This document shows, in pieces, positions 5,365-56,041 of a stretch of DNA of 64,000 bases. Position numbers and translations under genes: made by a program. Under the pieces are notes generated by a model. It was given only the letters and a program-made list of their open reading frames with translations. It was not told the DNA's origin and did no database searches. The DNA lies in the NCBI GenBank assembly GCA_009927165.1, contig RFNO01000038.1, positions 13,574-77,573 on the forward strand, read 5' to 3'. Source of the stretch: Pseudomonadota bacterium (GTDB lineage Bacteria > Bdellovibrionota > FAC87 > UBA2466). The first letter of the stretch is position 1. Each line of letters starts with the position of its first letter.

Positions 5365-6518
5365 GCCGTAGCAATTCCCAAACCTCCTCCGACAGATTTC
5401 AAACGGTAAATCAAGTGAGTTGCTAGTCGGGTCCCACTTGCAGCGAGAGGATGGCCTACAGCAATTGCTCCCCCATCAATGTTGAGTTTGCTTACCGGGA
5501 ATTTTAATTCTCTTTGAACGGCTAAAACCTGGGCTGCAAAAGCTTCATTGATTTCAATCAAACGAATATCGGTTTCACTGACATCTAATTGTTTTAAGAG
5601 CTTGCGAGTGGCTTCTACCGGGCCCAAGCCCATTTCTTTAGGATCACATCCCGTAACGGTAGAACCACACCAAATAGCCAATACGGGCCAGCCGTGCTCT
5701 TGTGCTTTCTGTTGTGTAGTGAGAATCATAGCAGCAGCTCCATCACAAATACCGCTGGCATTGCCCGCAGTGACTACACCATCAGTTTTAAAAACCGGCT
5801 TGAGTTTTTTTAGAGATTCCAGAGTAGCATCAGTACGTAAATGTTCGTCGTTTAAAAATTGGGTTACTGAAGTTCGGGACTTGATTTCAACAGGGGTTAT
5901 TTCCTCTTTGAAATGTCCCTCCTTTTGGGCTGCCGCTGCTTTCTTTTGAGAATCCAAAGCAAAGGTATCGATTTCATCGCGAGTAATCGAATACTTTTCT
6001 GCAAGTCTTTCAGCTGTTAGCGCCATCGGTAAGTTGGCGTAAGTATCAAAGAGTCCAGCCATCAACGTATCTTCGATTTCCCCATTTCCCATTCGATAAC
6101 CAAATCGAGCTTTTCGCAGAGTGAAAGGAGCTTGGCTCATATTCTCAGTTCCACCCACTAGAACTACCGAAGCTTCTCCTAAACGAATGCGCCGGAAACC
6201 ATCTGCGGCAGCTTCCAACCCGGAACCACAGAGGCGGTTGAGAGTGAGGGCCGGAGTAGTTATGGGAATTCCTGTTTTGAGTCCAACATGCCTTGCCAGA
6301 TAGGCGGCATCCGAAGAGGAGGGGATGACGTTTCCAAAAACAACATGGTCAATCAAGTGAGGATCCATTTTTATTTGAGCCAGAGCCCCTTGAGAAGCTT
6401 GGACTGCGAGATCGGTAGCTGAAAAGTCTGTGAGAGAGCCTCCAAAAGCTCCGAATGCGGTGCGTTTAGCCGCTACGATTACGAGAGAGTCTTGATTCAA
6501 CGTTTTTTCGTTTTTCAT
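5319..6518 (-). CDS. acetyl-CoA C-acetyltransferase (thiolase II)
   Basis: Thiolase signatures are present: NRLCGSGLEA (active-site Cys), GNASGICDGAAA, GHPLAASGTRL and ACIGGGQGIA. Confidence 0.9.
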   Translation of the reverse strand: MKNEKTLNQDSLVIVAAKRTAFGAFGGSLTDFSATDLAVQASQGALAQIKMDPHLIDHVVFGNVIPSSSDAAYLARHVGLKTGIPITTPALTLNRLCGSGLEAAADGFRRIRLGEASVVLVGGTENMSQAPFTLRKARFGYRMGNGEIEDTLMAGLFDTYANLPMALTAERLAEKYSITRDEIDTFALDSQKKAAAAQKEGHFKEEITPVEIKSRTSVTQFLNDEHLRTDATLESLKKLKPVFKTDGVVTAGNASGICDGAAAMILTTQQKAQEHGWPVLAIWCGSTVTGCDPKEMGLGPVEATRKLLKQLDVSETDIRLIEINEAFAAQVLAVQRELKFPVSKLNIDGGAIAVGHPLAASGTRLATHLIYRLKSVGGGLGIATACIGGGQGIAALLKV

Positions 6519-43278: not shown

Positions 43279-44055
43279 ATGGCACAACAGCACCGAAAAC
43301 AGTTTTGGGTCGGCTCACTTGTTTTAATATCTGTCGGATTTCTATTCGCTTTCACTTGGGGCTTAGGCTTGATCAGCCCTTTAAGTTCAAGCAATCAGTA
43401 CGACGTCTTCTATAATTTTGCTGGCGGGGTAGAGGTGGGAGCACCCGTGAGAGTCAGTGGCATTAAGGTAGGCAAAGTTGAGAAAATTCAGTTTTTGCAT
43501 GAGGAGTTACCCGAGCCGTTCACTGGAACCTCAGTGAAACTCACTGTGAGTGTGAATCAGGAAGCAAAATCACTGGTAAAAGAGGATTCTAAGTTTTATG
43601 TGAATATCGCTGGCATCATCGGCGAAAGATACATTGAAATAACACCTGGAAGCGCCGCTAGTGCCCTGTTAATTCCGAGCTCAAAGGTTCGTGGAATTGA
43701 TCCTCCACGAGTCGATCAACTGCTTTCCCAGGGATACGGCGTGTTTGGAAGAGTACAGGATTTTCTCGAGCAAAATGAAAGCACTTTGAAAGAGCTGCTC
43801 ACCACAGTGAATTCACTGATGACTGATACCAACCAACTCCTAAAAACCGTTGATCGGAAAAAGCTCAACCGGTTGGTAGATAATCTCAATGAAGTCAGCT
43901 CGAATTTTGGAGCACTTTCGCGCGGATTCAGAGAACCAAGAAGTCGGAAATTTGTCGATCAAGTCTATGATTTAGTGGACCGGGCTCACCAAATCGACAA
44001 AGAAGCATTAAAACAATTTTTCCAAGAAGAAGGCGTACGAGCTCGAATTTTTTAA
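43279..44055 (+). CDS. MlaD-like MCE-domain protein
   Basis: It has an N-terminal TM anchor, then an MCE core (FAGGVEVGAPVRVSGIKVGKVEKI ... NIAGIIGERYIEITPG) and a C-terminal helical region. Confidence 0.8.
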   Translation: MAQQHRKQFWVGSLVLISVGFLFAFTWGLGLISPLSSSNQYDVFYNFAGGVEVGAPVRVSGIKVGKVEKIQFLHEELPEPFTGTSVKLTVSVNQEAKSLVKEDSKFYVNIAGIIGERYIEITPGSAASALLIPSSKVRGIDPPRVDQLLSQGYGVFGRVQDFLEQNESTLKELLTTVNSLMTDTNQLLKTVDRKKLNRLVDNLNEVSSNFGALSRGFREPRSRKFVDQVYDLVDRAHQIDKEALKQFFQEEGVRARIF

Positions 44056-44071
44056 CAAAAAAGGTCATCGT

Positions 44072-44587
44072 ATGAAAAAAATTATTTGTCTGATTGCTCT
44101 GGTCATAACAAATCTTACCTATGCCAGTTTTATGGCTGATTTTCGTTTAGAACGTCGTTTCGGAGTAGGGTTGGGGGTAGGGGGCCCTCTCAGTGTCTTA
44201 GGATTAGAAGTTGAATTTAATTTATCATCAGATGTGTCATTGGTCGGAGGAATTGGCAGTGGCCATGATTACTCAACTTTTGCCGCCAGAGGAAAGTATT
44301 TTTTTCTCGGTGACCAAGTGAGCCCTTATTTCTTGCTTGGGTTTGCCCGTTGGTGGAGCCAGGGGACTACCCAAACAGACGTTGGACCAGCAGTCCTCAA
44401 AAATATCTTTCTTCAGGGCGAGGATCCCAGACAAGGTTTCAGCGTTTGGACTGTTTATCCAGGAATTGGTGTCCAATTTATCCACGATTCCGGATTTTCA
44501 ATGTATGCCGAAGCTCACTACTTATTTAAGATGCCGAGTTTTTCAAATGGTACTTATGCCGGGCTAGGAGCTTCCTGGTTCTTCTAA
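44072..44587 (+). CDS. small outer-membrane beta-barrel protein
   Basis: Signal peptide MKKIICLIALVITNLTYA, alternating strands, and a C-terminal aromatic signature ...GLGASWFF. It starts 16 nt after the MlaD-like gene. Confidence 0.55.
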   Translation: MKKIICLIALVITNLTYASFMADFRLERRFGVGLGVGGPLSVLGLEVEFNLSSDVSLVGGIGSGHDYSTFAARGKYFFLGDQVSPYFLLGFARWWSQGTTQTDVGPAVLKNIFLQGEDPRQGFSVWTVYPGIGVQFIHDSGFSMYAEAHYLFKMPSFSNGTYAGLGASWFF

Positions 44588-44597
44588 TCGTTATCAA

Positions 44598-46547
44598 ATG
44601 CGCCGATTTCTTAACTATTTCCAGTCAAGCACACGTAGCTTAAAAACGCAGCTTGCCTTCTATTTCATTCCCGTAACGGTGCTGCCTGTTTTGGGTATTA
44701 GTTATTATGCAACCCACATTTTTGAAAAAAGCACCGAGGAAAGATTATTCCGTCAAGCAGAGTCTGAACAAAGTTTAGTGGTTTCGGAACTAGAAGCAGC
44801 AGAAAAAACCATTTCAGCGCAAATTCGTCGATACGCCAATTTGGATATTTTAATTTCTGCTGTCTCAAGTAAGAGTCCCCAAAAAATCACCCCCATTATT
44901 TCTGGCCTACGCTCCAACGGAAAACTGAGAGTTTATACAGCCGATGGTGATTTTCTTGCTGAAGGAGTGAGCGAACCCAACCTTCATTCGAGAGTCAACT
45001 ACATATCGAGAGAAGGACTAAAAAAAGTAAAAACTCAAGGAATCACAGTCGAGCGCTTTTTTGCTGACGATGGAGCGGGTCTTATTATTCTGGGAAGAGC
45101 GCTGTTGAAAGATGGTGATCGGCTTTATGGGATCTTGGAACAAGAAACTCTCTTCGGTCATGCCCAACTTGCGGAGATTCGAAGTAGACGACAGCTAGAT
45201 GTTATTTTTGTGAAGCGAGACTTTTCTACAGCGACATCAAGTTTGTCTATCGGATCCCAGCGCCTCGTTGATTTTTCCAAGGGGTTATTACAGTCAAAAA
45301 TAGTGGCATCTCATGCCTTCAACCCGATATGGCTGGGAGATGTTAGGTATGCCAGCTATCTGTACGACTTACCTGACATGACTGGGAAAACCAAGAGCTG
45401 GGCTTATCTAGGTATCCTGTTGCCTCTGACTCAAAGCGATCAAACTTCTCGTCAGTTAAGGATTAATATTATCTATATAACTGCTTTCTTGGCATTGGGT
45501 TTTGGATACCTCATCTTTGTTTTCTCAAATCGAATCGTGAAACCGATTGAAGTGCTTGTCGTCGCCATGAAACGAGTGAAAACTGGAAACGTTGAGGAAA
45601 TCCCACCTAACGATTCCAGCTATGAAATCGACTATCTGATCAGTGCGTTCAACGAAATGATACGGAATGTTAGTGCTGCTAAGAGAGCGCTGGAACTGAA
45701 AGTAGATGAGCTTAGAAAAGCTAACGCTGAAATAAAGAGCACCCAGACTACCTTGGTACAATCAGCAAAGATGATCTCCCTGGGACAGATAGTTGCAGGC
45801 GTTGCCCATGAACTGAATAATCCTGTCGCATTTATTTATAGTAATATGCATCATTTGTCGGGATATATAGAAAAAATAAAAGAAATGATTTCCGCCTACC
45901 AGGCTTTGAAAATGGAGATACCAGTAGATAAACGTAAAGAAGTTGAGAATCTTGAGCAAAAACTTGAGATTTCATTTCTCTTAAATGACATGGGTGAGCT
46001 TACCCAGAGTTGTTTAGATGGAGCGAATCGTACCAAGGAAATCGTTCTTGGATTGCGAACATTTTCTCGTATGGATGAGTCAAGCTTTCGACCCTCTGAT
46101 CTCCATGAAGGTCTCAAGAGCACTCTGCGTCTTTTGAGCGCCGAATTAAAAAATCGAATTACCGTTCATCAGGAATTCGGTGAAATCCCGAAAGTCGAGT
46201 GTGCACTTTCACAGATAAATCAAGTGTTCATGAATCTGATCTCAAATGCGGCGCAAGCGATAAATGGGAAAGGCAGTATATGGATTCGAACATACTCTGA
46301 AGAGAAATCCGTTATTATTGAGATTGAAGACTCAGGGATGGGAATGAGTCCCGAAGTAGTGAGCCAAGTTTTTGTTCCGTTTTTTACGACGAAGAGAGTG
46401 GGCGAGGGAACTGGGCTAGGTCTCTCAATAGCTTATGGTCTGATTCAAAAGCATAATGGGCGTATAGAAGTTGAAAGTGAACCGGGAAAAGGTACTTTGT
46501 TTAGAATAATTCTGCCTATCACACAAAGAGTTTCCGAAGCAGGGTAA
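44598..46547 (+). CDS. sensor histidine kinase (2 TM, periplasmic sensor, HAMP, HisKA, HATPase_c)
   Basis: H-box GVAHELNNP, N-box FMNLISNAAQA, G1 EIEDSGMGM and G2 GTGLGLSIAYG are present. There are two hydrophobic segments at residues ~20-40 and ~290-310. Confidence 0.9.
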   Translation: MRRFLNYFQSSTRSLKTQLAFYFIPVTVLPVLGISYYATHIFEKSTEERLFRQAESEQSLVVSELEAAEKTISAQIRRYANLDILISAVSSKSPQKITPIISGLRSNGKLRVYTADGDFLAEGVSEPNLHSRVNYISREGLKKVKTQGITVERFFADDGAGLIILGRALLKDGDRLYGILEQETLFGHAQLAEIRSRRQLDVIFVKRDFSTATSSLSIGSQRLVDFSKGLLQSKIVASHAFNPIWLGDVRYASYLYDLPDMTGKTKSWAYLGILLPLTQSDQTSRQLRINIIYITAFLALGFGYLIFVFSNRIVKPIEVLVVAMKRVKTGNVEEIPPNDSSYEIDYLISAFNEMIRNVSAAKRALELKVDELRKANAEIKSTQTTLVQSAKMISLGQIVAGVAHELNNPVAFIYSNMHHLSGYIEKIKEMISAYQALKMEIPVDKRKEVENLEQKLEISFLLNDMGELTQSCLDGANRTKEIVLGLRTFSRMDESSFRPSDLHEGLKSTLRLLSAELKNRITVHQEFGEIPKVECALSQINQVFMNLISNAAQAINGKGSIWIRTYSEEKSVIIEIEDSGMGMSPEVVSQVFVPFFTTKRVGEGTGLGLSIAYGLIQKHNGRIEVESEPGKGTLFRIILPITQRVSEAG

Positions 46548-46554
46548 TAAACAT

Positions 46555-48822
46555 ATGAAGATTTGGAACATCGGATATCCGCGAATAGGGAGACAAAAAG
46601 AGTTAACTGCTATTGTCGACTCCTTTCTTAAGAATCAGATAAAAGATAACGAGCTTTTGAGCAAGGGAAGTGAACTACTCAGAAGCCGATGGGAAACGCA
46701 GCATAATTTAGGGGTGGATAGTATCCCACTCAACGATTTCAGTTTTTGCGACCCTATTCTTGATACGGCCCAACTGTTCAATCTCATTCCTGAAATAGGA
46801 GAGGAGAAGAAGAGCTGGCTTCTCGATTCTTTTGTGCTCACGGGACAAAGAACGTTAGCTGGTCAACTTCCGCTCAAATTGGCTAAGTGGTTTAACACGA
46901 ACTACCATGTCTCTTCGCCTGAAGTAAACGCTCAGACAAAATTTAGTCTGAAAAAAGGGAAACTCCACTGGGAATTAGAACAGTCAAAAGCTGTTCCCTA
47001 TAATTTTCATGTCACGCTTGTGGGACCATGGACGCTTGCAAAGTATTGCCGATTACAGGGTATAACTTTGCCAGGTATTTTGGCGGAATTGGCACCCCTG
47101 TACAAAAGCCTAATCAATGAAATCCACAAAAAAGGCATCCAGTGGATTCAACTTGAGGAACCCGCACTTTGTCAGGATCTCGATCGCTCCGATCTCAAAA
47201 CTATTCAAAAAACGTATGAAAGTTTTGAGGGGGCAGCATCAAAGATAATGCTGTCGCTCGCTTATGAATCTCCGGATCCTTGGTTGACTGACCTTGCGCT
47301 CTTGCCGGTACATGGGTTTCACTTTGATCTTGTTTCTGGACCCGCAACGTTCAGTTGGATTAAGACACGTTCTTTCCCCCGAGATAAAATTTTGTGTCTG
47401 GGACTTGTTGATGCGCGAAATGTCTGGGCAGCTCCTCTATCCAGCTTATACAAACAGATTGAGATCCTGAAGGGCTTTCATCCAGTCAGCAAAATGATGG
47501 TTGCGCCGAGTGCATCATTAACTCATTTGCCGATCTGCAAAAAAGTCGAAGTGGAACTTAAAAAGAAAGAGGCTCTTTTCAGATCTCTTTCCTTTGCTGA
47601 TCAGAGGCTGGAAGAGTTGGCACAACTGAAAATGGTGCTTTTGGGAGAAGCAGATGCAGAAGGTCTCCAAAAAGCCGAAACTTTATTGAGGCAGGATCTG
47701 AAGAACCTTCATAAAGTAGACGAGGGTGTTCAAAAGCAGATAAATAAAATTGAACCAACCATGAAACGACGAACGTCCTCATTTGCAAAGCGTTTCAAGG
47801 CCCAGAGCAAAAAATTGGGTCTGCCCCGTCTTCCATGCACAACCGTTGGTTCATTTCCTCAAACAGATGAAATCGTAGAAGCTAGAAAAAGGGCCAAAGA
47901 AGGAGCCGACCGAGAAAGCTACTATCATAGTCTCATTAAGATGGAGATTGCTAAAGCCATTGATATTCAGGAATCAGTGGGGATGGATGTGCTTGTGCAC
48001 GGGGAATGTGAAAGATCAGACGTTGTTGAATATTTTGCCGCTCAGCTGGCGGGTTTTTCGGTTACAGAACATGGTTGGGTACAGTGTCTCGGGACTCATT
48101 GTGTTCGACCCCCCATCATTGTTTCGGATATTCAACGAAAAGAGCCCATGAGTCTCCTGGGTTATAAAATGGCCCAAGAATTAACGCCCAAACCAGTTAA
48201 AGCGATAGTTACCGGGCCAGTAACGTTAGTAAACTGGTCATTTGTTCGCCAGGATCAACCTCAAGAAAAAACTGCACTTCAAGCGGCGTTAGCTATTCGG
48301 GCTGAACTTAAGGAGCTAGAGCGCTTTGGTGCAAAAATCATTCAAATAGACGAGCCGGGGATCAAAGAAGGTCTACCCATCAAAAAGGGAAAGAGGCCGA
48401 ACTATCTACGTTGGGTAACCGATGTGTTTCGTTTAGCAACTTCTGGCGTACAAGATGAAACTCAAATTCAAACCCATTTGTGTCTCAACGATCTATCGGA
48501 ACTGATTGAAGCCGTCGGCAAGTTTGACAGTGACGTATTTCTCATTGAAACATCCCGTTCAAATGGAAATCTATTGAGCTTTTTGAAAACAACTGTTTTT
48601 GAGTCCAGTATCGGCCCCGGAATTTATGATGTCCATTCCAGACATGTCCCTACAGTAAATGAATTTGAACTGTCCCTCCGGAAATGTTTCGAAGTTCTCG
48701 CTCCGGAAAAGATATGGGTTGTCCCCGATTGTGGATTGCGTACTAGAACCCACGACGAAGTACGACAAGCGTTGGCCAACATGGTGGAATCCGCCAAAAG
48801 AATTCGGAAATTATTAGGTTAA
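46555..48822 (+). CDS. metE: cobalamin-independent methionine synthase
   Basis: 755 aa with the two-barrel architecture. C-terminal Zn ligand motifs THLCLND and VVPDCGLRTR are present. Confidence 0.92.
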   Translation: MKIWNIGYPRIGRQKELTAIVDSFLKNQIKDNELLSKGSELLRSRWETQHNLGVDSIPLNDFSFCDPILDTAQLFNLIPEIGEEKKSWLLDSFVLTGQRTLAGQLPLKLAKWFNTNYHVSSPEVNAQTKFSLKKGKLHWELEQSKAVPYNFHVTLVGPWTLAKYCRLQGITLPGILAELAPLYKSLINEIHKKGIQWIQLEEPALCQDLDRSDLKTIQKTYESFEGAASKIMLSLAYESPDPWLTDLALLPVHGFHFDLVSGPATFSWIKTRSFPRDKILCLGLVDARNVWAAPLSSLYKQIEILKGFHPVSKMMVAPSASLTHLPICKKVEVELKKKEALFRSLSFADQRLEELAQLKMVLLGEADAEGLQKAETLLRQDLKNLHKVDEGVQKQINKIEPTMKRRTSSFAKRFKAQSKKLGLPRLPCTTVGSFPQTDEIVEARKRAKEGADRESYYHSLIKMEIAKAIDIQESVGMDVLVHGECERSDVVEYFAAQLAGFSVTEHGWVQCLGTHCVRPPIIVSDIQRKEPMSLLGYKMAQELTPKPVKAIVTGPVTLVNWSFVRQDQPQEKTALQAALAIRAELKELERFGAKIIQIDEPGIKEGLPIKKGKRPNYLRWVTDVFRLATSGVQDETQIQTHLCLNDLSELIEAVGKFDSDVFLIETSRSNGNLLSFLKTTVFESSIGPGIYDVHSRHVPTVNEFELSLRKCFEVLAPEKIWVVPDCGLRTRTHDEVRQALANMVESAKRIRKLLG

Positions 48823-48823
48823 A

Positions 48824-50164
48824 CTAAAAAATCTCCTTTCGGTGTAAATCCTCTCCACAATGAACTTCCTCTCGTTCCTTAAGGTACTGTAAGACCCTTT
48901 TCCTAGTTTGGTCCGTCGTGATTTCGCTTTGGAAAGAACCACTACCAATGTGCGCTTTGTGCCAGGGCTCCGGGGGATAAGTGGCAGAATCAAGCAAATG
49001 GATGAGCCGAAGCGTCTTAAGGGCATCGAAGTTAGTATAAAACTGCCTGATTCGTTGTCGGTAATTGGTCCTTTGCTGGTAGGCGGCTTGAAGCAAATCG
49101 GGAAGTAACAATTTCTCTCCAGCGGAAAAGCCAGAAGGGGATTGCAAAATCAAATATTCTCGCCAACTTTGAAAAGCTTTAGCAAATTGTTCGGAAGGAA
49201 CGTTTAATGTCTGCTCAGAAGCCTTCATGAGTTGTTTGAGGAAAACAAAAGAAGCCGGATTATAAAGACTGTACTCATCGCCTTGAGTGAGAAGCCGAAA
49301 AATATCCGTCGTTGATTGACCGGTTCCAAATGGAACGCGATGTGAAAAACGCCCTCTTAAAGAAATGGGTTCGCCTTTTCGATAGTGAATTGCCCCCAGC
49401 TTTCGCAGTTTATTTAACAAATGAAAATCTTCTCCAGCTTGACGTTTGGGGAACCCTCTCACTTGAGCATATGAAGATGCTTGAATTGCAAGACAGCTTC
49501 CAATCGATGGAAAAGCAAAGGGAGATTCAGCTTCATAAAGCATCAAGAAATAATTTCTTAAATGAATTTCATAAAGTTCAAGCGCCTCAGCACCATCAAA
49601 ACCCTCGATATGATGTCGGTAGGGATAATGATGAGCCACTGCTGAAGTGTTAGTGGCTTGGAAGTAGTCTAAAGGAAGCGAAGCATCGGAATCGGTAGTC
49701 CGAAGCAATGAATCGACAATCAGTCCGTTCGCGTAAAGCTGACAAAGAATGTCGCATCCGATTTTTCGAGCTAGACCGACGCCTTCCTTTTCCTGAAATG
49801 GCAAATAACGACAACGGTCCACCCAAAGAATATGTAAGAGCGAAGAAATACTCTGAAAGCAGAAGCCCTCTTCAAATACTAAACCCATGCTTTTGAAAAA
49901 TTCAAAAAGCGCGTCATTAAAAAAAGATTCTTCACCAGTAGGATGGATCGACGAATTGATCACGGCTACGACGAGAACCGATCGATTTATCCCCTTGGTT
50001 ATGTTACTAAGGGAACTGAATAAGTGCTCTAAGTCAGACCACGATTCTCCGCGAATAGGCACGGCCACTCCAAAAGAAAACTCTGTTTTAATATGTGTCA
50101 GGAATTCAGCGCGAACTTCCGGCTCCGCATAGTCAGTTAAATAGTGAACTAAGTTCCGGTCCAT
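48824..50164 (-). CDS. uncharacterised protein with GT-A-like glycosyltransferase features
   Basis: The order of motifs resembles a GT-A fold: FGVAVPIRGE, GVGLARKIGCD, TDSDASLPLDY (DxD-like), then GSCLAIQASSYAQVRGFPKRQAGEDFHLLNKL (ED). The start codon overlaps the miaE stop (TAATG). CDS confidence is higher than product confidence. Confidence 0.45.
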   Translation of the reverse strand: MDRNLVHYLTDYAEPEVRAEFLTHIKTEFSFGVAVPIRGESWSDLEHLFSSLSNITKGINRSVLVVAVINSSIHPTGEESFFNDALFEFFKSMGLVFEEGFCFQSISSLLHILWVDRCRYLPFQEKEGVGLARKIGCDILCQLYANGLIVDSLLRTTDSDASLPLDYFQATNTSAVAHHYPYRHHIEGFDGAEALELYEIHLRNYFLMLYEAESPFAFPSIGSCLAIQASSYAQVRGFPKRQAGEDFHLLNKLRKLGAIHYRKGEPISLRGRFSHRVPFGTGQSTTDIFRLLTQGDEYSLYNPASFVFLKQLMKASEQTLNVPSEQFAKAFQSWREYLILQSPSGFSAGEKLLLPDLLQAAYQQRTNYRQRIRQFYTNFDALKTLRLIHLLDSATYPPEPWHKAHIGSGSFQSEITTDQTRKRVLQYLKEREEVHCGEDLHRKEIF

Positions 50165-50733
50165 TAGTGAACAGCAGGTCTGATAGGAGAAGCCTCAAAA
50201 GCTTTCGCTTCTTGATCGAGCCAAAAGTCGAGTCTTGCGAACACTTCTGCTTCTGTAAAAAATGGTAACGCCAGGTCTACAAACAAGCGTTTGTGGTGGT
50301 CTTCAGCTTTGGCTAGTCGATGGTAGAAAGCTTTCAATTCAGAGTCGGTCAGCGCTTGAGCCACGAGTTCTAGTTTTTCAGTGCCTCGCGCCTCAATTAT
50401 TCCAGATACTAAGAGACGATCGAGGAATCGTTCGTCTCTTCCAAAGCGAACCTGTTTCATTAAAAGATTAACATAGGAGTCTGGCTCATCGGGTGCCAGT
50501 GTCAGTCCTCTGCGGAAGATTAATTTGCAGACTTGGTGAAAATGTTCCAGCTCCTCTCGCGCAAAATTAATCATCGGCTCCAATAAAGCGGTACGATCGG
50601 GGTAGCGCACAACAAAAGACATGCCAACTGCGCTTGCCTTTCTTTCACAGGAAGCATGATCGATCAAAAAGGCATCAAAATTATTTAAGACGCATTCAAC
50701 CCACTCTGGGGGGGTTTTGGTTCTGAGGAGCAT
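50164..50733 (-). CDS. miaE: tRNA-(ms2io6A37)-hydroxylase MiaE
   Basis: DHASCERKA and REELEHFHQV di-iron ligand-type motifs are present in a ~190 aa four-helix protein, typical of MiaE. Confidence 0.75.
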   Translation of the reverse strand: MLLRTKTPPEWVECVLNNFDAFLIDHASCERKASAVGMSFVVRYPDRTALLEPMINFAREELEHFHQVCKLIFRRGLTLAPDEPDSYVNLLMKQVRFGRDERFLDRLLVSGIIEARGTEKLELVAQALTDSELKAFYHRLAKAEDHHKRLFVDLALPFFTEAEVFARLDFWLDQEAKAFEASPIRPAVH

Positions 50734-50793
50734 GTGCCTTTAATAATGGGATTGGTCGGTAGGGTCAATGGGGTTTAGATAAGTGCCTGAGAA

Positions 50794-51684
50794 TTACATT
50801 TGTGCCGTCATTTGAACCTGTTGATAGCGTTCCCGAGGATCTAGCTGATCGGAAAAACGGTTAGAAAGGCTATGAATACCAAAAAGAAGGCCACTGGTTA
50901 CGATGAGGGGATAGGCGAGCAGCCACCAGGCATCCCTGTTATCAGAGTACTGATGAAACAACTCCGAAAGAGTGGGGGTTGGAATGGGAAACCCCAAGCC
51001 AAAAAAGTCCAGAGCTGCCAGAGAAAGAATACTAGAAAATATCACTAGAGGAAAAAATGCGAAAACGACGGGTCTCACTGTTGGAATTAAATATCTGAAA
51101 AATATCTGTAGCTGTTTTAGCCCTTGGGAACGAGCTGCTTGGAGCAGGGGGCTTCGTAACGATGAGTCGGTTTGAATCCTGACCAGTTGGGCAAGGGTCC
51201 CCCATCCCAAGAACACTTTTAAAAGACCTACAAGAAAAACCTGACCGGGATAAAAGCTTAACCCAATCAGCGCCAATGGAAATAAAGGCAGTGATGAAAG
51301 TAGCTCTGTCGCTGAGTTCGCTGCATGCTTCAGTGTTGATGGAAGAAAAGAAAGAGCAATTCCCAAAAGCAGGCCGAGAAGGCAGGTAAAAAATGCCACG
51401 AACCCCCCAAAGAGGAGTGAGTAGCCGGAACCAAAAAGAAGTCGGCTTAACACATCTCGCCCTATTTCATCTGTTCCCCAGAGATGTTTTGTTGAGGGCG
51501 CTGAAGGTGGCAAGACAGTAGCATCAGTACGATCGGGTTCAAGAACAGACCAGGAGCCATTGTGAGATTGTTGATAATCCACATCAAGGCTCGGTTTCAT
51601 AAATACAACCCATAAACTGACCAAAAGCCAAAGTGCCCAACAACCCCAACCCACCGTTTTTAAAAAAACTGAAAATGCTTTCAT
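50794..51684 (-). CDS. peptide/nickel-type ABC permease (OppC/DppC-like)
   Basis: BPD_transp_1 pattern with GTDEIGRDVLSRLLFG near the N-terminal loop. Confidence 0.85.
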   Translation of the reverse strand: MKAFSVFLKTVGWGCWALWLLVSLWVVFMKPSLDVDYQQSHNGSWSVLEPDRTDATVLPPSAPSTKHLWGTDEIGRDVLSRLLFGSGYSLLFGGFVAFFTCLLGLLLGIALSFLPSTLKHAANSATELLSSLPLFPLALIGLSFYPGQVFLVGLLKVFLGWGTLAQLVRIQTDSSLRSPLLQAARSQGLKQLQIFFRYLIPTVRPVVFAFFPLVIFSSILSLAALDFFGLGFPIPTPTLSELFHQYSDNRDAWWLLAYPLIVTSGLLFGIHSLSNRFSDQLDPRERYQQVQMTAQM

Positions 51685-52595
51685 GTGGAGTGACCGTATT
51701 TCCTACTAGGAAAAAAGAGAAGCAATGCGAGTTCCCTCAGATTGCTTAAGATTATCCTTCCCCCGCCAATTACCAGTGTAATTCCAATCAGGATGGGGAG
51801 ATCTTGATTACGAAATGCTTCTACTGCAAGAAAGCCCAGCCCTTGAATTCGGAAAATAGGCTCTACCACAAGGCTCGCTCCAAAAAACAGGCCCCACCAA
51901 AGCGGTAAAATGGAAACTGTGACTTCTAAGCAAGGGCGACTCAAGTGTCGTAAATAAAACTGCCGGCGACTTAAACCTTTCGCGATTACGGCCTTAGCGT
52001 AAGGTTCTCGCTCCTCCTGGGCCAATCGTTGTTGAATTAAGCTCGCCAAATAGGGAACAGTGGCGGCCAAGTAAACAAGAGAAGGAGGAATCCAAAAGAC
52101 AAACAAAGAAGTGCTGAAAATGAAAAATGTTGCAAGGGAAAAAGAAGGCAAGCAAAAAAGGAAATCAGCAGCAATTGTTAGAATTCTCCCAGGCCACTTT
52201 TTGTCCCAAAGTGATTGGCCCATTCCCCAAAAAATACCTAGCGGGACAAACAATAAAAAAGAAAAAATACCGTAGCTGAGGGTGGCACGGGAACGCTCTT
52301 TGAGCAGTGTGAGCACCGGTGTTCCCGTCCAAAGTGATTCTCCTAAGCTTCCATGGCTCATGCCTATTAAGAAATCACAAACCTGTTTGCTAAAAGAGCC
52401 TGTGAGGCCCCACTGTTTAAGAAGAAGTCTTTGATCAGCTACTGACGGGGCGGCTTGGGGATTAAAAGAGTGGATCCGGACCAGAAAATACTCCAGCGGA
52501 GCAGATGAAAAAAAATGGTAGATAGAAAAAACAGCGATAGTAAAAACAAGAAGGGAAACCATGAGCGTAACCACTTTTAGTGAAAAGCGGATCAT
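51681..52595 (-). CDS. peptide/nickel-type ABC permease (OppB/DppB-like)
   Basis: Polytopic. I place the start at ATG 52595 (MIRFSLKVVTLMV), which forms an ATGA overlap with the binding-protein stop. The listed ORF extends to 52679. Confidence 0.85.
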   Translation of the reverse strand: MIRFSLKVVTLMVSLLVFTIAVFSIYHFFSSAPLEYFLVRIHSFNPQAAPSVADQRLLLKQWGLTGSFSKQVCDFLIGMSHGSLGESLWTGTPVLTLLKERSRATLSYGIFSFLLFVPLGIFWGMGQSLWDKKWPGRILTIAADFLFCLPSFSLATFFIFSTSLFVFWIPPSLVYLAATVPYLASLIQQRLAQEEREPYAKAVIAKGLSRRQFYLRHLSRPCLEVTVSILPLWWGLFFGASLVVEPIFRIQGLGFLAVEAFRNQDLPILIGITLVIGGGRIILSNLRELALLLFFPSRKYGHST

Positions 52596-54271
52596 GATTT
52601 GCCGTTTCCTCCAGGGAGAAGGGGAGAAGAGGGCATGTCCTTCGGTGCCCATTTCCAAAAATGAAATACATTGATCCATCGCGAGAAGGGGAGATACCCA
52701 GGCTTTTTAAATGAGTATCGATTCCAATAAGCAATTCGAGTAGAAGTGGGCTCCCACGAAAAAGCTATGGGATAGGCTTCGGAAATTAACTTGTCCAAAC
52801 GACGTATTACTTCGGACTTCTTTTTCTGGGGAAGTGGCCGTCTGAGTTGTTCCAAAAGTGAATCGACAGCGGGATCGGAAAAGCCTGTGATGTTACCGGA
52901 AGGGTCTTTGGAACCAGAACTGTGCCAAGTGGTTTCCAGGTCATTCATTTGGAAATTGCGATTTCGTGAAAAATCCAAAGCATCAAAGTTTCCTTGGCTT
53001 CTCAATCGCAAATAAGAACTCCAATCGACAATTCGGATTGATGCCTGAATGCCGACTTTTTTGAGATCTTCTTGGTAGATGGCAAGGTGTTTCGCGGCCG
53101 GAGGATTGCCAGTTAATATTTCAAACGTAAATGGAGTATCCCCTTTTTCCAAAACGCCATGGGAATTTTTTTTCCAGCCTGCCTGGAATAATAATTGAAC
53201 TGCTGCTTGAGGATCATAGGGCAGTGGATTGTTATCTGGGTGATGATATTCAGATCGGATAGGAGCTATTCCAGCTGATAACTGGTACTGGTCATAAAAC
53301 AGATCTTTAATGAGGCGCTGACGATCGAAGAGAAGTCCTAACGCTTTCCGAACTTTCGGATCGGAAAACAAGGGTTTTCTCATGTTCCATGCAATTCCTG
53401 CGACTGCAAATGGGTTTTGGTTTTTTACTTCCATTTTGTTAATTTGATGCTCGCTAAAGAGAGGACCAATCGTATCTTTGGCCCAAGATTTAGCAGACAA
53501 ATAATAAAGATAATCAATTTCATCTTTGAGCAACATTTCGTTCAAAAGAGCTGGTTCGGTTTGAATCTGGAATTCCACTCGTTGAATCAAAAAACGGGAC
53601 TGTTTGTCAGCCCGCTTTCTGGCCCAATAATTCGGATTTGCTTTGAGCGAAATACTTTTTCCCCACTCTACTTTGTCAAAAATGTAAGGGCCAGAGCCGA
53701 TGTAACTCTCATTGAAATCACGATGAAATACTTTGTTTGAAAAATGTCTTTTGGGCAAAATCAGAAAGCTTTCAAAAAGAGCAAAACCATCAGCAACTGG
53801 TTTGTCCGCAAAAAAGCGAACTTTATGTGCAGAGATAACTTGGCAAGAACGAATCGAGGAAAACAGAGAAGCAAAAGCTTGAGTTCTGTTTTCCGGTTTG
53901 TGAATGGAGTCCCAAGTAAAAAGAACATCTTCAGCTGTTACAGGGGTTCCATCCGAAAAGTGAGCGTGGGGGTCGAGTTCGAAATCAAATTCGGTGTGTA
54001 AAGCATTCTTGGCAAAAGATTGTGCCAGAGCGGGTTCTGGTTCCAGGTTGGTGAGACTGAGTCGAACGAGCGGTTCTAATACAAGATAGCTCACGGCCTC
54101 GGAGTACTCATCAAATCCCAAGAAAAAGAGATTGGAGAGCGGGAAGCCTAACATTCCAACGCGAATCCGATTAGAGGCAGGTTCTCTGATTGGCGCAGTT
54201 CCGCCGGAGTGTCCCCCCAGCAGCATCAAGATCGAACATAACAAAAATGTGTTTCTGAAGTTCATACCCAA
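52592..54271 (-). CDS. ABC substrate-binding protein, family 5 (OppA/DppA-like)
   Basis: Signal peptide present, 559 aa, SBP_bac_5-like pattern (FSDGTPVTAEDVLFTW, GSGPYIF, ANPNYW). Confidence 0.85.
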   Translation of the reverse strand: MGMNFRNTFLLCSILMLLGGHSGGTAPIREPASNRIRVGMLGFPLSNLFFLGFDEYSEAVSYLVLEPLVRLSLTNLEPEPALAQSFAKNALHTEFDFELDPHAHFSDGTPVTAEDVLFTWDSIHKPENRTQAFASLFSSIRSCQVISAHKVRFFADKPVADGFALFESFLILPKRHFSNKVFHRDFNESYIGSGPYIFDKVEWGKSISLKANPNYWARKRADKQSRFLIQRVEFQIQTEPALLNEMLLKDEIDYLYYLSAKSWAKDTIGPLFSEHQINKMEVKNQNPFAVAGIAWNMRKPLFSDPKVRKALGLLFDRQRLIKDLFYDQYQLSAGIAPIRSEYHHPDNNPLPYDPQAAVQLLFQAGWKKNSHGVLEKGDTPFTFEILTGNPPAAKHLAIYQEDLKKVGIQASIRIVDWSSYLRLRSQGNFDALDFSRNRNFQMNDLETTWHSSGSKDPSGNITGFSDPAVDSLLEQLRRPLPQKKKSEVIRRLDKLISEAYPIAFSWEPTSTRIAYWNRYSFKKPGYLPFSRWINVFHFWKWAPKDMPSSPLLPGGNGKS

Positions 54272-54365
54272 AGGCCTAACTTAAGTCTTGTGTAAACTCC
54301 GCTGGGCTGTACAGAGTTTGTCCTCATTTTGCATTAGCCCAAGTTTCTGAGGAGGACTGAAGTTA

Positions 54366-54605
54366 ATGAAACACCAATATCAATTAAAACGAGACGAAGT
54401 AAATCGAATCATTGGAAGCCAAGAGTTAAAAAAATGGTGGGTAGCCGAATTCACGGGGGTTCACAAAACAACTCTTCGACGCTGGTTACAGGGTAAAATT
54501 CATACAGTGCGGGGGGAGCACGCAGAACAATTAGCCCAAGTGCTGCAAGCACGCTTAAGCGAGATAGCTGACCCCGTCGCTAAAAGGAATAACCAGAACA
54601 TTTAA
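54366..54605 (+). CDS. small helix-turn-helix DNA-binding protein
   Basis: 79 aa. The HTH-like segment is WVAEFTGVHKTTLRRWLQGK. Confidence 0.5.
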   Translation: MKHQYQLKRDEVNRIIGSQELKKWWVAEFTGVHKTTLRRWLQGKIHTVRGEHAEQLAQVLQARLSEIADPVAKRNNQNI

Positions 54606-54661
54606 AAATCAGTAAATACAGGCAGTTACATCTAACAAACCTGTTCTTGACGATCCTGCTT

Positions 54662-54703
54662 CGCTCCCCTAGTTTGAGCTTTATGAATTCAACTAGGGGA
54701 GCG
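54662..54703. repeat. perfect 13-bp inverted repeat CGCTCCCCTAGTT-N16-AACTAGGGGAGCG
   Basis: Read directly from the sequence. It lies between the HTH gene stop (54605) and ATG 54713. Confidence 0.7.
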
Positions 54704-54712
54704 GCTAGGGAC

Positions 54713-55315
54713 ATGGAGCGAAGAGTGTTTTTTCGAAAACTTGTCCCATTTTTGATGATTTTCGGCAGTGTGGCCTATCCCTCTGTGGATATTCTGGGGT
54801 TGGGAGAAACTCTAACCCAGGGGCTTCGAGTCTTTGAGCGGGTTTATGAAGGCAATGATCAGTGGGCTGGAAGCTTTTGTAACGGACAGTATTCTTACCG
54901 TCTCAGAGTAAGAACCCAAATTAACGATGTTCAGATTGAATTAAATGAAGACGGTTCTGTGCTGCTCAATGCCACGTTAGAGAATCCCTACTTTGGTTTT
55001 GAGGGAAGTTACACCGGGGCCTATTCCTTATGTTTTCCGACATCGGCTTGGACAGGATTATCAGCCGACCAGATTCATGCAAGCGCTCGCATCGAGTTTA
55101 CTGATAAAGAAGATGGAAAAGTTGAATTTACAGTTCATGTGAATTCTCTTGCGTTAGACCGTCTTCACACCGGGGGACTGTCTGGAGAAGCAGAGGAAAC
55201 CTTGACGCTTTTGCTCAACAAAACATTAAAAGAAGTGTGGACTTCCCAATTTGGAGAGTGGTTGAGCCAACAAATTTCCCTCTACATCAATAAAAATATT
55301 CCTGTAAAATCGTAA
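54713..55315 (+). CDS. secreted hypothetical protein
   Basis: I place the start at ATG 54713 (MERRVFFRKLVPFLMIFGSVAYPSVD, a signal peptide). The longer listed ORF (54647) would have to read through the inverted repeat. Confidence 0.5.
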   Translation: MERRVFFRKLVPFLMIFGSVAYPSVDILGLGETLTQGLRVFERVYEGNDQWAGSFCNGQYSYRLRVRTQINDVQIELNEDGSVLLNATLENPYFGFEGSYTGAYSLCFPTSAWTGLSADQIHASARIEFTDKEDGKVEFTVHVNSLALDRLHTGGLSGEAEETLTLLLNKTLKEVWTSQFGEWLSQQISLYINKNIPVKS

Positions 55316-55343
55316 AGCATCATTTTCAGGAAAGGTCTCGAGT

Positions 55344-55868
55344 ATGAAAGATTGGATAGAGTGGTTTAAACAAGCCCCCAGAAACACTCAAGTCCTGACA
55401 TCCTTTCTATTGGTTGCTGGCTTCGCAGTCCTTTTGATTTCGGTGACTTCGATTGGGATCATCATGAAAGCTCAGTTTTCTACTTCCAATACGATCGCAG
55501 AGTCTAAAGTCCATCACTCGGAAACAAACGAAGAGACCAAACCTACGGTGACCTCTTTTCCCTTTGAGCTTAACCAAGTTTCGATGGCTGTGATGAGCAA
55601 GAAGGGAACCAAAACTGCCTACGCTCAATTTACGCTCAGTCTGGACTGTCCCTCTGAAGAGTCGCAGAAATTAATGGCTTTGAATCGTGCGAAACTCTTG
55701 GATTCTGTGTTTTTGGTGGGAAGTAATTTTTATCTTGATGATTTTACCGCTGAGGCAGCCCCCAAATCTCTTGAAAAATTCAAACATGAGTTATTAGAAA
55801 AGTACCAGGAACACTTCCAAGCAGAAGCTCCTCGAGGCATCGTTCTGAAAGAATGGTTCATCAACTAA
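55344..55868 (+). CDS. FliL-like flagellar basal-body-associated protein (paralog)
   Basis: It has a single N-terminal TM segment, then the pattern ...MSKKGTKTAYAQFTLSLDC..., ...NRAKLLDSVFLVGS..., ...LLEKYQEHFQ....GIVLKEWFIN. This matches the FliL family layout. Confidence 0.5.
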   Translation: MKDWIEWFKQAPRNTQVLTSFLLVAGFAVLLISVTSIGIIMKAQFSTSNTIAESKVHHSETNEETKPTVTSFPFELNQVSMAVMSKKGTKTAYAQFTLSLDCPSEESQKLMALNRAKLLDSVFLVGSNFYLDDFTAEAAPKSLEKFKHELLEKYQEHFQAEAPRGIVLKEWFIN

Positions 55869-56041
55869 AAAGACTAAAAATGTCAGCGCGTTGAATACTC
55901 TTCATACATCTTCCTCTGTATACTCCTTGACTTCCCTGCGTGAGCTAATTGGCACGACTTTGCAACTTCTGATCCGCAGTTATGTTTCGGAATTCGAATG
56001 AATTGCGATAATTCACTAAGAATACGGAATTGAGTAAAGCA

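Follow-up and report, generated by a model that had tools for sequence, protein, structure and literature searches.

MiaE hydroxylates ms2i6A37 to ms2io6A37. The canonical enzymes, of the Salmonella typhimurium and Pseudomonas putida types (PDB 6zma/6zmb and 2itb), belong to Pfam family PF06175 and carry two ExxH motifs and an EAR-x-CERF-like motif, features shared with the MiaE-like protein analyzed here, designated type 2, whose length of about 190 aa is like that of P. putida-type MiaE. PMC7515727 distinguishes two groups of MiaE, of Salmonella and of Pseudomonas type, defines the diiron motifs of the enzyme (two ExxH and EARSCERF), and gives an identity of 51% between MiaE from S. typhimurium and from P. 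putida. Type 2 is 33% identical to a canonical MiaE copy and forms a clade apart from both characterized types; additionally, it has EARG where canonical MiaE has EARS, and a lower basicity of the intermediate loop sets it apart.

To our knowledge, the only enzymes that add a sugar to the hydroxyl of a hypermodified anticodon-loop base are the vertebrate QTGAL and QTMAN (galQ, manQ), of which QTGAL is a GT2-family protein. They differ from the transferase proposed here in the base (the cyclopentenediol of Q34), its position and the domain of life, and we liken them to it by description only. Plant cis-zeatin O-glucosyltransferases are GT1 enzymes with a GT-B fold that act on free cytokinins, not on tRNA; their acceptor is the allylic hydroxyl of cis-zeatin, as had been proposed for our locus in its preliminary description. 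In phage DNA hypermodification, 5-methylpyrimidine dioxygenase is paired with glycosyltransferases (bioRxiv 10.1101/2023.12.21.572611). There, a hydroxyl made by an oxygenase on a nucleic-acid base is then glycosylated, which is the logic that we propose below, by analogy only; the phage systems differ in their enzyme families, in acting on DNA and not RNA, and in belonging to phages and not to cellular genomes.

Organization of the gene pair

The window, i.e., the whole stretch of 64,000 nt that was analyzed, contains two overlapping genes, for a MiaE-like protein and for a putative glycosyltransferase (Table 1). At their junction the minus strand reads ...cac TAA TGg..., with the TAA from the miaE-like gene at 50166–50164 and the ATG from the transferase gene at 50164–50162, which share base 50164; both ORFs and the stop/start overlap are as claimed in the preliminary description. 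Single-base overlaps of this type are frequent in operons and, alone, are of little weight. A scan for promoters and terminators (positions 48400–51900) retrieved fewer sites than in shuffled sequences, and none between the miaE-like gene and the transferase gene, and no family reached its gathering score in an Rfam scan of positions 44000–56000. The source genome of the window also contains miaA, as well as a miaB exceeding the equivalog cut-off. A complex prediction for the MiaE-like protein and the transferase, using alignments A2 and A1, respectively, gave ipSAE values of 0.00 and 0.00 (mark 0.32), which speak neither for nor against a complex.

Table 1. Location in the window of the gene pair and of the features discussed in the text.
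Feature	Position	Strand	Evidence
Type-2 MiaE-family gene, putative non-haem diiron hydroxylase	50164..50733	-	189 aa, ATG start, Pfam PF06175
446-aa GT2-like gene, uncharacterized, soluble	48824..50164, stop codon included	-	ORF, ATG start
TAATG stop/start overlap	50162..50166	-	sequence read
Conserved N-terminal extension, residues 1-27	50084..50164	-	alignment A1, consensus KYLxxYAEPE
Predicted catalytic domain of GT-A (GT2-like) type, approximately residues 28-295	49280..50083	-	model, VIA, Foldseek, weak PF13632
DxD motif D158-S159-D160	49685..49693	-	codons gat tcc gat; PF13632 match begins here
E245-D246 of GEDF motif, candidate catalytic-base region	49427..49432	-	invariant in A1, within PF13632 match
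C-terminal helical domain, residues 296-446	48827..49279	-	A1; folded alone pLDDT 88.7

Sequence and phylogeny of the MiaE-like protein

The 189-aa product matched Pfam MiaE (PF06175) with an E-value of 7e-42 and 143.9 bits (cut-off 27), over profile positions 9–191 of 199, whereas against the NCBIfam MiaE equivalog NF047790 it scored 88 bits and the cut-off is 320. Its sequence matches in the structure database included P. putida MiaE (6zmb, E 1.5e-27) and 8fhb (E 3.5e-29). All 33 rows of alignment A2 share the candidate metal ligands E30, E60/E61, H64, E114, E144, and H147, and the window protein contains the two ExxH motifs and the further carboxylate ligands that characterize a diiron site. 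The counterpart of EARSCERF is EARGTEKL in the window protein, and the consensus of type 2 has EARGCERF.

A quick tree placed type-2 (34 rows) and canonical (19 rows) MiaE sequences in separate clades, with an SH-aLRT value of 100 on either side. Both clades carry an identical residue, at ≥90% conservation, in 27 positions that include all of the ligands, and show fixed differences at only three positions. Lysine K40 from P. putida MiaE, which is essential in vivo and borders the entrance to the active site (PMC7515727), aligns to K32, invariant in type 2. A second basic residue needed for activity at that entrance, P. putida R100, corresponds to M92 of the window protein, where the next residue is K93; the type-2 consensus has an R at this position. 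The loop proposed to grasp the tRNA shows a median net charge of +1.5 in type 2 vs. +4 in canonical MiaE, and both proteins of the pair are near-neutral to acidic (median pI of 5.8 and 6.7). Our literature search found no characterized member of the type-2 clade. Judging from these comparisons, the gene that the preliminary description had simply called miaE encodes a member of a distinct type-2 clade and not the characterized enzyme: its assignment to the PF06175 family, with the diiron ligands, holds, but it does not extend to identity with canonical MiaE, given the separate clade, the score of 88 vs. 320 bits and the coexistence of both types. Because type 2 coexists with canonical MiaE, its product cannot simply be taken as ms2io6A.

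Predicted structure and conserved motifs of the 446-aa protein

The AF2 model of the 446-aa protein (pLDDT 92, pTM 0.92) had as VIA structural neighbors TarS (5tze, Z 15.2), chitin synthase (8k52, Z 15.1), and SpsA (1h7l, Z 14.0). Foldseek retrieved 130 matches with E ≤ 0.001 and, among the matches listed, all were glycosyltransferases of GT2 type, with E-values from 3.6e-7 to 9e-5 and a probability of 1.00. Many of the GT2 structural neighbors, among them DPMS, GtrB, ArnC, and mannosylglycerate synthase, have polyprenyl phosphates or small acids as substrates. The fold and the placement of the DxD motif, and apparently also that of the ED motif, are like those of GT2 enzymes with a GT-A fold, exemplified by TarS, SpsA, 8k52, and RmlT from L. 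monocytogenes (8bz4), with a sequence identity to the GT2 structural neighbors of only 7–14%. On the basis of the model, we confidently predict a GT-A/GT2 fold for this protein, as had been anticipated from four GT-A-like motifs, all of which are present in the translation (VAVPIRGE, residues 33–40; GVGLARKIGCD, 128–138; TDSDASLPLDY, 157–167; and GFPKRQAGEDFHLLNKL, 237–253).

Pfam profiles recognize this family weakly. On the window protein, PF13632 scored 18.4 bits, below its cut-off of 27, with a match spanning residues 158–258, and among 31 family members E-values ≤ 0.01 were obtained by eight for PF13632 and by four for PF00535 (best E 3e-8). On these scores, we regard the transferase family as related to GT2 but diverged, rather than as one of its standard members. 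A sequence search of solved structures yielded chance-level matches only (SRP54, E 2.2), and NCBIfam gave no meaningful match (best TIGR04283, E 0.017). The family comprises at least 3165 relatives at E ≤ 1e-3 (8000 candidates scored), and nearly all of the named ones are "hypothetical protein." Distant relatives in Bacteroidota are present in the ESM Atlas. None of the 120 near-length relatives listed exceeds 478 aa and, as weak evidence for the lack of fused or longer forms, there were no matches at E ≤ 1e-10 among proteins of 782–2230 aa.

Residues D158 and D160 occur in all 31 rows of alignment A1. We take E245-D246 as a candidate for the catalytic-base region, from the "ED/TED" motif of GT2 enzymes. 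The motif RxxxRxPFGT is also invariant in A1, including R272 and R276, and so is N70; this Asn presumably falls roughly where most GT2 enzymes have an Asp, a placement by general position and not by residue-by-residue alignment. Within the N-terminal extension, Y8 is invariant and L9, Y12, and E16 are nearly so. This extension, with its YAEPE sequence, together with the unmatched C-terminal helical domain, the invariant N70 and the soluble character of the protein, separates the transferase from the GT2 comparators; indeed, its highest 19-residue Kyte-Doolittle mean was 1.2, with no transmembrane segment apparent. The conserved DxD and ED motifs suggest that the transferase is catalytically active.

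The helical tail of about 150 residues noticed initially corresponds to the C-terminal domain, with helices from around residue 303 to 435 in the model. It contains a conserved FDAxKTLRxIH motif, in which D380 and T384 are invariant in A1. In structural searches with this domain folded alone, VIA returned only generic helical bundles, with Z of 6.3 at most, and Foldseek had no hits with E ≤ 0.001; the searches revealed no resemblance to known tRNA-binding domains, which does not exclude tRNA binding.

A possible homology to the plant GT1 O-glucosyltransferases was ruled out, since the model is GT-A, with GT-A top neighbors, and the plant enzymes are GT-B, which makes homology impossible.

Conservation of the gene pair

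The pairing described from the window recurs in other genomes. Of 80 loci retained out of 573 confirmed relatives, 63 contained a MiaE homolog (phmmer E ≤ 5e-27) upstream and on the same strand; judging by record titles, these paired loci belong to Bdellovibrio-like bacteria, Acidobacteriota, Myxococcota, and Gammaproteobacteria, i.e., from at least four phyla. With approximate start calls for 62 of the same-strand pairs, 16 showed an overlap of 1 or 4 bases, and in a further 21 the gap was 0–30 bases. A sample of 201 genomes from the phylum of the window included 59 with both genes, two with only the transferase, seven with only MiaE and 133 with neither; in 48 of the 59 genomes with both, the distance between the genes did not exceed about 65 bases. 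Many of the genomes sampled are related, and kin share gene order.

Judging by record titles, cultured carriers of the transferase include Thalassotalea, Microbulbifer, Endozoicomonas, Pseudomaricurvus, Exilibacterium, and Litorirhabdus. In a sample of 251 genomes from the class of Thalassotalea, type-2 MiaE was present in 14 of the 15 transferase carriers and, conversely, the transferase in 14 of the 16 type-2 carriers. The two genes lay within 500 bases of each other in 13 of these 14 gammaproteobacterial genomes, eight of them co-directional and five head-to-head; the occurrence of both arrangements implies that adjacency has outlasted a rearrangement. In the phylum sample, one genus (g15, seven genomes) retained both genes, although unlinked. 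In the class sample, only six of the 28 carriers of canonical MiaE contained the transferase, and all six also had type 2. The transferase, then, tracks type-2 MiaE and not canonical MiaE. We found no other widely conserved neighbor; those recurring were lineage-specific, such as a FabV-like enoyl reductase (14 loci), an MBL-fold protein (11 loci), and ThiS (seven loci). Several spurious overlapping ORFs appeared among the neighbors in GC-rich loci. Control searches in E. coli found miaA and miaB and no miaE.

Exceptions to the pairing occur on both sides. Nine genomes carry the transferase without any PF06175 match (G001, G002, G003, G005, G209, G210, G089, G156, and G354), including Vicinamibacterales MAGs (G001 and G002; chromosome-level) and a Kofleriaceae MAG; the genome of G089 is 100% complete, and miaA was present in the five MiaE-less genomes examined for it. 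These cases argue against an obligatory supply of the hydroxyl by MiaE. A search for a substitute partner upstream of the transferase at the MiaE-less loci found unrelated genes only (LRR, HMGL-like, EAL, MCP, and spermidine synthase). Type-2 MiaE without the transferase was found in seven genomes of the phylum sample and two of the class sample, and no substitute transferase was evident beside it: the downstream genes encode proteins of 202–339 aa with neither a Pfam match nor similarity to A1. Additionally, type 2 and canonical MiaE occur together in six of the 14 gammaproteobacterial carriers of the class sample (G206, G208, G257, G312, G380, and G425), as well as in G207 and G004, and in the genomes of Thalassotalea, Microbulbifer, and Endozoicomonas the canonical gene is unlinked to the pair. 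Cultured examples with both MiaE types are Thalassotalea mangrovi, Microbulbifer sp. TYP-18, and Endozoicomonas sp. G2_1.

A putative two-step modification pathway

We propose that the two genes may form a conserved two-enzyme module, with consecutive steps on one substrate, an isopentenyl-adenine and most likely that of tRNA A37, which would first be hydroxylated and then O-glycosylated; to this reading we assign a probability of roughly 0.35. In the first step, the type-2 diiron enzyme would use O2 to hydroxylate a methyl of the N6-isopentenyl-adenine side chain, most likely in (ms2)i6A37 of tRNA, as occurs with canonical MiaE. Type 2 may differ from canonical MiaE in regio- or stereochemistry, or in the set of tRNAs, which would explain that certain genomes keep both MiaE types. 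A precedent for two isomers is the 2-methylthio-ribosyl-trans-zeatin from Azotobacter tRNA cited in PMC7515727. In the second step, the GT2-like enzyme would use a nucleotide sugar, with the DxD motif holding the metal-diphosphate and ED acting as the base, and would place a glycosyl on the new hydroxyl to yield a glycosylated nucleoside of io6A type.

Glycosylation of a tRNA hydroxyl is a reasonable proposal, and the two-step reading is favored by the coupling of the genes in 63 of the 80 loci, the active-site core in common with MiaE, the predicted GT-A fold with DxD and ED motifs, and the presence of miaA and miaB in the genome. A missing GT-A fold and a pair that is not conserved, both named in the preliminary description as grounds for rejection, are contradicted by our results. 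Genomes with only one of the two genes, and those that have canonical MiaE besides type 2, count against the two-step reading. The part of it that concerns tRNA is weakened by the less basic type-2 loop, the near-neutral to acidic character of both proteins, and the lack of a match to tRNA-binding domains. We know of no glycosylated i6A-type nucleoside, and a literature search that covered few subscription journals found no paper on such a nucleoside or on the gene pair. That glycosyl-io6A or glycosyl-ms2io6A occurs at A37 in several phyla, made by a third MiaE clade and a new GT2-like tRNA glycosyltransferase, is possible, and we put it forward tentatively.

The same features of the type-2 protein bear on what the substrate might be. 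Its active-site core, common with MiaE, would equally fit the adenine-isopentenyl moiety in free cytokinin-type bases, nucleosides, or nucleotides, which could stem from tRNA turnover, and the pathway would then lead to a zeatin-O-glycoside-like metabolite and not to a tRNA modification. Such a destination would agree with a loop less basic than the canonical tRNA-grasping loop, with two near-neutral to acidic proteins, with a transferase lacking a recognizable RNA-binding domain, and with a division of labor between type 2 and the coexisting, presumably tRNA-directed, canonical MiaE. We nonetheless consider it unlikely: the conserved surroundings of the pair include no dedicated adenylate isopentenyltransferase, LOG-type gene, or exporter, the lysine corresponding to K40 at the active-site entrance of P. 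putida MiaE is invariant, and the free-living freshwater, marine, and soil hosts would seem to have no evident use for cytokinin conjugates. It is doubtful, though a serious contender, that the substrate is unrelated (a prenylated lipid, a quinone, a polyprenyl phosphate, or another small molecule) and that the name MiaE is misleading for type 2. The 27 positions in common with canonical MiaE, with only three fixed differences, argue for a substrate-binding site much like that of the canonical enzyme; moreover, neither protein has a membrane segment (by a hydropathy scan in the case of the transferase), and genes for lipid or isoprenoid metabolism are not among the conserved neighbors, those for FabV, an MBL-fold protein, and ThiS being present in subsets of loci only. 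Weighing in the opposite direction are the separate, uncharacterized nature of the type-2 clade, the nine genomes with the transferase and without any MiaE, the use of polyprenyl phosphates or small acids by many GT2 structural neighbors, and the invariant R272 and R276, which could bind the phosphate of a non-RNA acceptor.

The remaining explanations concern the relationship between the two proteins. They could be linked with another order or role, either with the transferase acting first and the hydroxylase recognizing its product, or with the GT-like protein as a specificity or recruitment partner that leaves the new hydroxyl unglycosylated. The existence of genomes with either gene alone is easier to accommodate if neither product strictly needs the other, and the large helical domain, itself conserved, could serve for binding; yet the DxD and ED motifs are invariant, and the simplest chemistry for an oxygenase and a glycosyltransferase is that a hydroxyl is made and then glycosylated, by analogy with phage DNA hypermodification, which renders these arrangements rather improbable. 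Most improbable, and disfavored, is that the genes have no functional link and are adjacent by inherited gene order or operon hitchhiking. Shared gene order among kin, in a sample with many related genomes, could create such an appearance, but hardly the presence of the pair in at least four phyla, its adjacency in both co-directional and head-to-head forms while all other neighbors vary among lineages, or the association of the transferase with type 2 and not with canonical MiaE, whose six transferase-containing carriers out of 28 all possess type 2.

Implications for the MiaE and transferase families

The comparisons add to the two recognized MiaE groups a third, widespread clade with a fixed partner enzyme of its own. 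Should this partner glycosylate the hydroxylated side chain in tRNA, this would be a new step in the well-studied i6A to ms2i6A to ms2io6A pathway and a bacterial counterpart of the animal sugar-bearing queuosines; we know of no earlier case in bacteria of a tRNA glycosylated on a base. If the substrate is instead free, the pair would represent a bacterial route to zeatin-glycoside-like compounds through enzymes unrelated to those from plants. Either way, the association provides a concrete hypothesis for a transferase family whose relatives, at least 3165, are almost all annotated as hypothetical proteins. Overall, the pair suggests a two-step modification not described so far, possibly on tRNA, which is testable in culturable bacteria, with E. 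coli as a clean host.

The gene pair in the window

The preliminary description placed a miaE gene in translational coupling with a downstream gene for a GT-A-like protein, hereafter the transferase. The nucleotide that it described as shared is indeed present at the junction, where one base is common to the stop codon TAA of the miaE-like gene (50166-50164) and the start codon ATG of the transferase gene (50164-50162). The genes on either side are unrelated to the pair (see table): on one side, the last gene of a co-directional ABC uptake set of the peptide type ends 60 bases ahead of the miaE-like gene, and on the other a single base (48823) separates the stop codon of the transferase gene from that of a convergent metE-like gene. 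The promoter/terminator scan found no terminator-like site between these two stop codons, nor any convincing promoter or terminator in or between the two genes of the pair, and the Rfam scan found no family there.

Features of the window around the gene pair
Feature	Position	Strand	Remarks
MiaE-family ORF	50164..50733	-	189 aa; first gene of the pair
Transferase ORF	48824..50164	-	446 aa; second gene of the pair
Cobalamin-independent methionine synthase (metE-like)	46555-48822		755 aa; Meth_synt_1 and Meth_synt_2; convergent with the transferase gene
Peptide-type ABC uptake set	50794-54271	-	SBP_bac_5 (family-5 solute-binding protein) and two BPD_transp_1 permeases
Small Cro/C1-type HTH protein, then a protein without Pfam match	54366-55315		79 aa and 222 aa

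The upstream protein belongs to a separate MiaE clade

The 189-aa protein matches Pfam MiaE (E 7e-42) and aligns over nearly its whole length to MiaE from P. putida (6zmb, E 1.5e-27), as well as to 8fhb, 5ux1 and 8fhc, deposited as 'MiaE' or 'MiaE-like'. An alignment of 33 sequences shows no variation at the candidate diiron ligands E30, E60/E61, H64, E114, E144 and H147. However, it reaches only 88 bits with the NCBIfam MiaE equivalog model, whose cut-off is 320. In 251 genomes from the class of Thalassotalea (the class sample), Pfam MiaE scores were bimodal, with 28 matches at 189–318 bits, which we named canonical, and 16 at 138–165 bits, named type 2; the window protein scores 145 bits. 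In a maximum-likelihood tree built from 53 sequences by a quick search, 19 canonical copies separated from 34 type-2 copies with SH-aLRT support of 100 on both sides, and two copies in the canonical clade have the long Salmonella-type insertion. Given the equivalog score, the bimodality and this split, the window protein is not an orthologue of the characterised MiaE enzymes; the name miaE used for it initially thus holds for the family but not for the orthologous group.

Two MiaE groups with 51% identity between them are described in a study of P. putida MiaE (PMC7515727, 2020), and both, as given there, fall in our canonical clade; a type-2 and a canonical copy compared here were 33% identical. 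Thalassotalea mangrovi, a Microbulbifer sp., an Endozoicomonas sp. and one MAG (G004) each contain one type-2 copy and, elsewhere, one canonical copy. This coexistence suggests that type 2 differs from canonical MiaE in the isomer, the tRNAs or the substrate concerned.

The predicted catalytic core of type 2 is very similar to that of canonical MiaE: 27 positions have the same residue, at least 90% conserved, in both clades, and only three differences are fixed (S34/A, G117/S and P183/D, type 2/canonical). According to PMC7515727, K40 of the P. putida enzyme is essential in vivo; its equivalent, K32, is invariant in type 2. At the position of R100, the type-2 consensus also has R, but the window protein has M92, with K93 as the next residue. 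The type-2 version of the intermediate loop, for which a role in grasping tRNA is proposed there, is the less basic one, at a median net charge of +1.5 compared with +4 in canonical MiaE.

The downstream protein is a divergent GT2-like enzyme

NCBIfam and PDB sequence searches with the transferase returned nothing useful, and its match to PF13632 (E 0.0021) is under the Pfam cut-off; among 31 family members, eight matched PF13632 and four PF00535 at E <= 0.01. An AlphaFold2 model built from 31 relatives (pLDDT 92, pTM 0.92) nevertheless predicts the GT-A fold anticipated from the sequence: Foldseek retrieved 130 PDB matches at E <= 0.001, and those listed are all GT-A glycosyltransferases, including catalytic domains of chitin, cellulose and hyaluronan synthases, RmlT, TarS, DPMS and GtrB. 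In an independent all-against-all structure alignment, Z was 15.2 for TarS, 15.1 for chitin synthase and 14.0 for SpsA. The four motifs pointed out previously are all present (residues 33-40, 128-138, 157-167 and 237-253), and invariant residues include D158 and D160 (DxD), E245-D246 (GEDF), G128-V-G-x-A-R-K134, R272, R276 and P278-F-G-T281.

The helical tail of ~150 residues was recovered as a domain (residues 296-446) that folds confidently when modelled alone (pLDDT 88.7), with D380 and T384 invariant; its structural matches are limited to generic helical bundles, with a best Z of 6.3, and Foldseek found no match for it at E <= 0.001. The protein has no apparent transmembrane segment and is, on its model, a soluble and divergent GT2-like enzyme that carries this additional domain.

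At least 3165 relatives were found at E <= 1e-3 among 8000 candidates scored, nearly all of the named ones labelled 'hypothetical protein'. Look-alike clusters in the ESM Atlas come from Acidobacteriota, Pseudomonadota, Thermodesulfobacteriota and Bacteroidota. One mostly Bacteroidota cluster of 2358 members, ~379-aa 'GT2 family' proteins, aligns to residues 42-440 of the transferase (TM 0.73/0.85), and the two-domain architecture therefore reaches Bacteroidota.

Conservation of the pair

In species-representative genomes, 573 relatives of the transferase were confirmed; among the best 80, compared by locus, 63 are preceded on the same strand by a MiaE homologue, always of ~189-200 aa. With approximate start-codon calls, an overlap of 1 or 4 bases was estimated for 16 of 62 same-strand pairs; the gap is 0-30 bases long in 21, 31-150 in 17 and longer in six, and two show larger overlaps that probably reflect mis-called starts. 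No other neighbour, the ABC uptake genes among them, is kept beyond single lineages in the related loci.

The sampled genomes are kin to each other, and the following counts are not independent trials: of 201 genomes from the window's phylum (the phylum sample), 59 contain both genes, two only the transferase, seven only MiaE and 133 neither. The genes are at most ~65 bases apart in 48 of those 59; one genus contributes seven genomes with both genes unlinked. In the class sample, 14 of 15 transferase carriers have type-2 MiaE, and the transferase occurs in 14 of 16 type-2 carriers. Of the 14 genomes with both, 13 have the two genes no more than 500 bases apart, in eight cases co-directional and in five head-to-head. 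Only six of 28 carriers of canonical MiaE have the transferase, and all six have type 2 too. The counts weigh less than three other arguments: the pair occurs across phyla, it occurs in two arrangements, and the transferase goes specifically with one clade of MiaE. The pairing of the transferase with type-2 MiaE is real, old and specific. Separately, one genome (G058:C3:280447-281507) has a transferase homologue matched in two pieces, with an internal TGA, 65 kb from its miaE-like gene, which may be a decaying copy.

Each gene also occurs alone. The 17 loci of the best 80 that lack a MiaE neighbour comprise ten Vicinamibacteria (L009, L012, L018, L020, L023, L030, L038, L052, L055 and L065), two Myxococcota (Haliangium and Kofleriaceae), two Gammaproteobacteria, one unclassified and two Oligoflexales, one of which cannot be judged, with only ~300 bases of upstream sequence. 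In a FastTree of transferases, the Vicinamibacteria and Myxococcota loci share one region spanning two Vicinamibacteria subclades, suggestive of a duplication. Whole-genome searches found no MiaE-family match in nine transferase carriers (G001, G002, G003, G005, G209, G210, G089, G156 and G354), of which G001 and G002 trace to chromosome-level Vicinamibacterales MAG records and G089 is 100% complete; miaA was present in all five MiaE-less genomes checked, and the transferase genes of such genomes have unrelated neighbours.

Conversely, nine genomes of the phylum and class samples have type-2 MiaE without the transferase, and no replacement transferase was seen beside it. In three of family f4 (L111 in G017, L113 in G074 and L114 in G066), type-2 miaE follows a fliD-TPR cluster and precedes a gene for a 219-339-aa protein without Pfam match; in a single case (L112 in G034, 3487-6077) it is directly downstream of the methionyl-tRNA synthetase gene metG, on the same strand. 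Lone carriers of either gene count against a strict dependence of the two proteins.

Possible function

The pair is thus inherited and maintained as a unit of two genes, one for a predicted diiron hydroxylase whose active site resembles that of MiaE, the other for a GT2-like enzyme that retains its donor-binding motif and its candidate base motif. The two enzymes would act one after the other on the same substrate: the oxygenase would make a hydroxyl, and the transferase would then glycosylate it. Because the conserved core is near-identical to that of canonical MiaE, our best guess for this substrate is N6-isopentenyl-adenine. To our knowledge, tRNA A37 is the only context in which the MiaE family hydroxylates isopentenyl-adenine, and the window's genome contains both miaA and miaB; we give hydroxylation of tRNA followed by glycosylation a probability of about 0.35. 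A report of the trans-zeatin form in Azotobacter tRNA is among the references of PMC7515727.

That the same two steps serve free cytokinin-type molecules we regard as unlikely, and action on an unrelated prenyl, lipid or small-molecule substrate as a doubtful but serious candidate; the similarity of the cores points to isopentenyl-adenine, and the coexistence of the two MiaE types leaves room for another substrate. Some other kind of partnership between the proteins seems improbable. That the genes have no functional link is very hard to reconcile with the spread over phyla, the co-directional and head-to-head arrangements and the tie to the type-2 clade.

By analogy, the pair would work like MiaE plus a GT2 glycosyltransferase, with type 2 inside the Pfam family but outside the characterised orthologous group, and the transferase a divergent relative scoring under family cut-offs. 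Among the closest functional analogies that we know of are the vertebrate queuosine-tRNA glycosyltransferases and the plant cis-zeatin O-glucosyltransferases, whose fold differs from the GT-A fold predicted here. Phage DNA systems pairing an oxygenase with glycosyltransferases are another. Our literature search, with most subscription journals outside its scope, found nothing about these two genes together or about a glycosylated nucleoside of the i6A type. What appears to be new is that a third clade of MiaE has a GT2-like partner dedicated to it and as yet without a name; if the tRNA reading is true, the pair would add a new kind to the tRNA modifications of bacteria.
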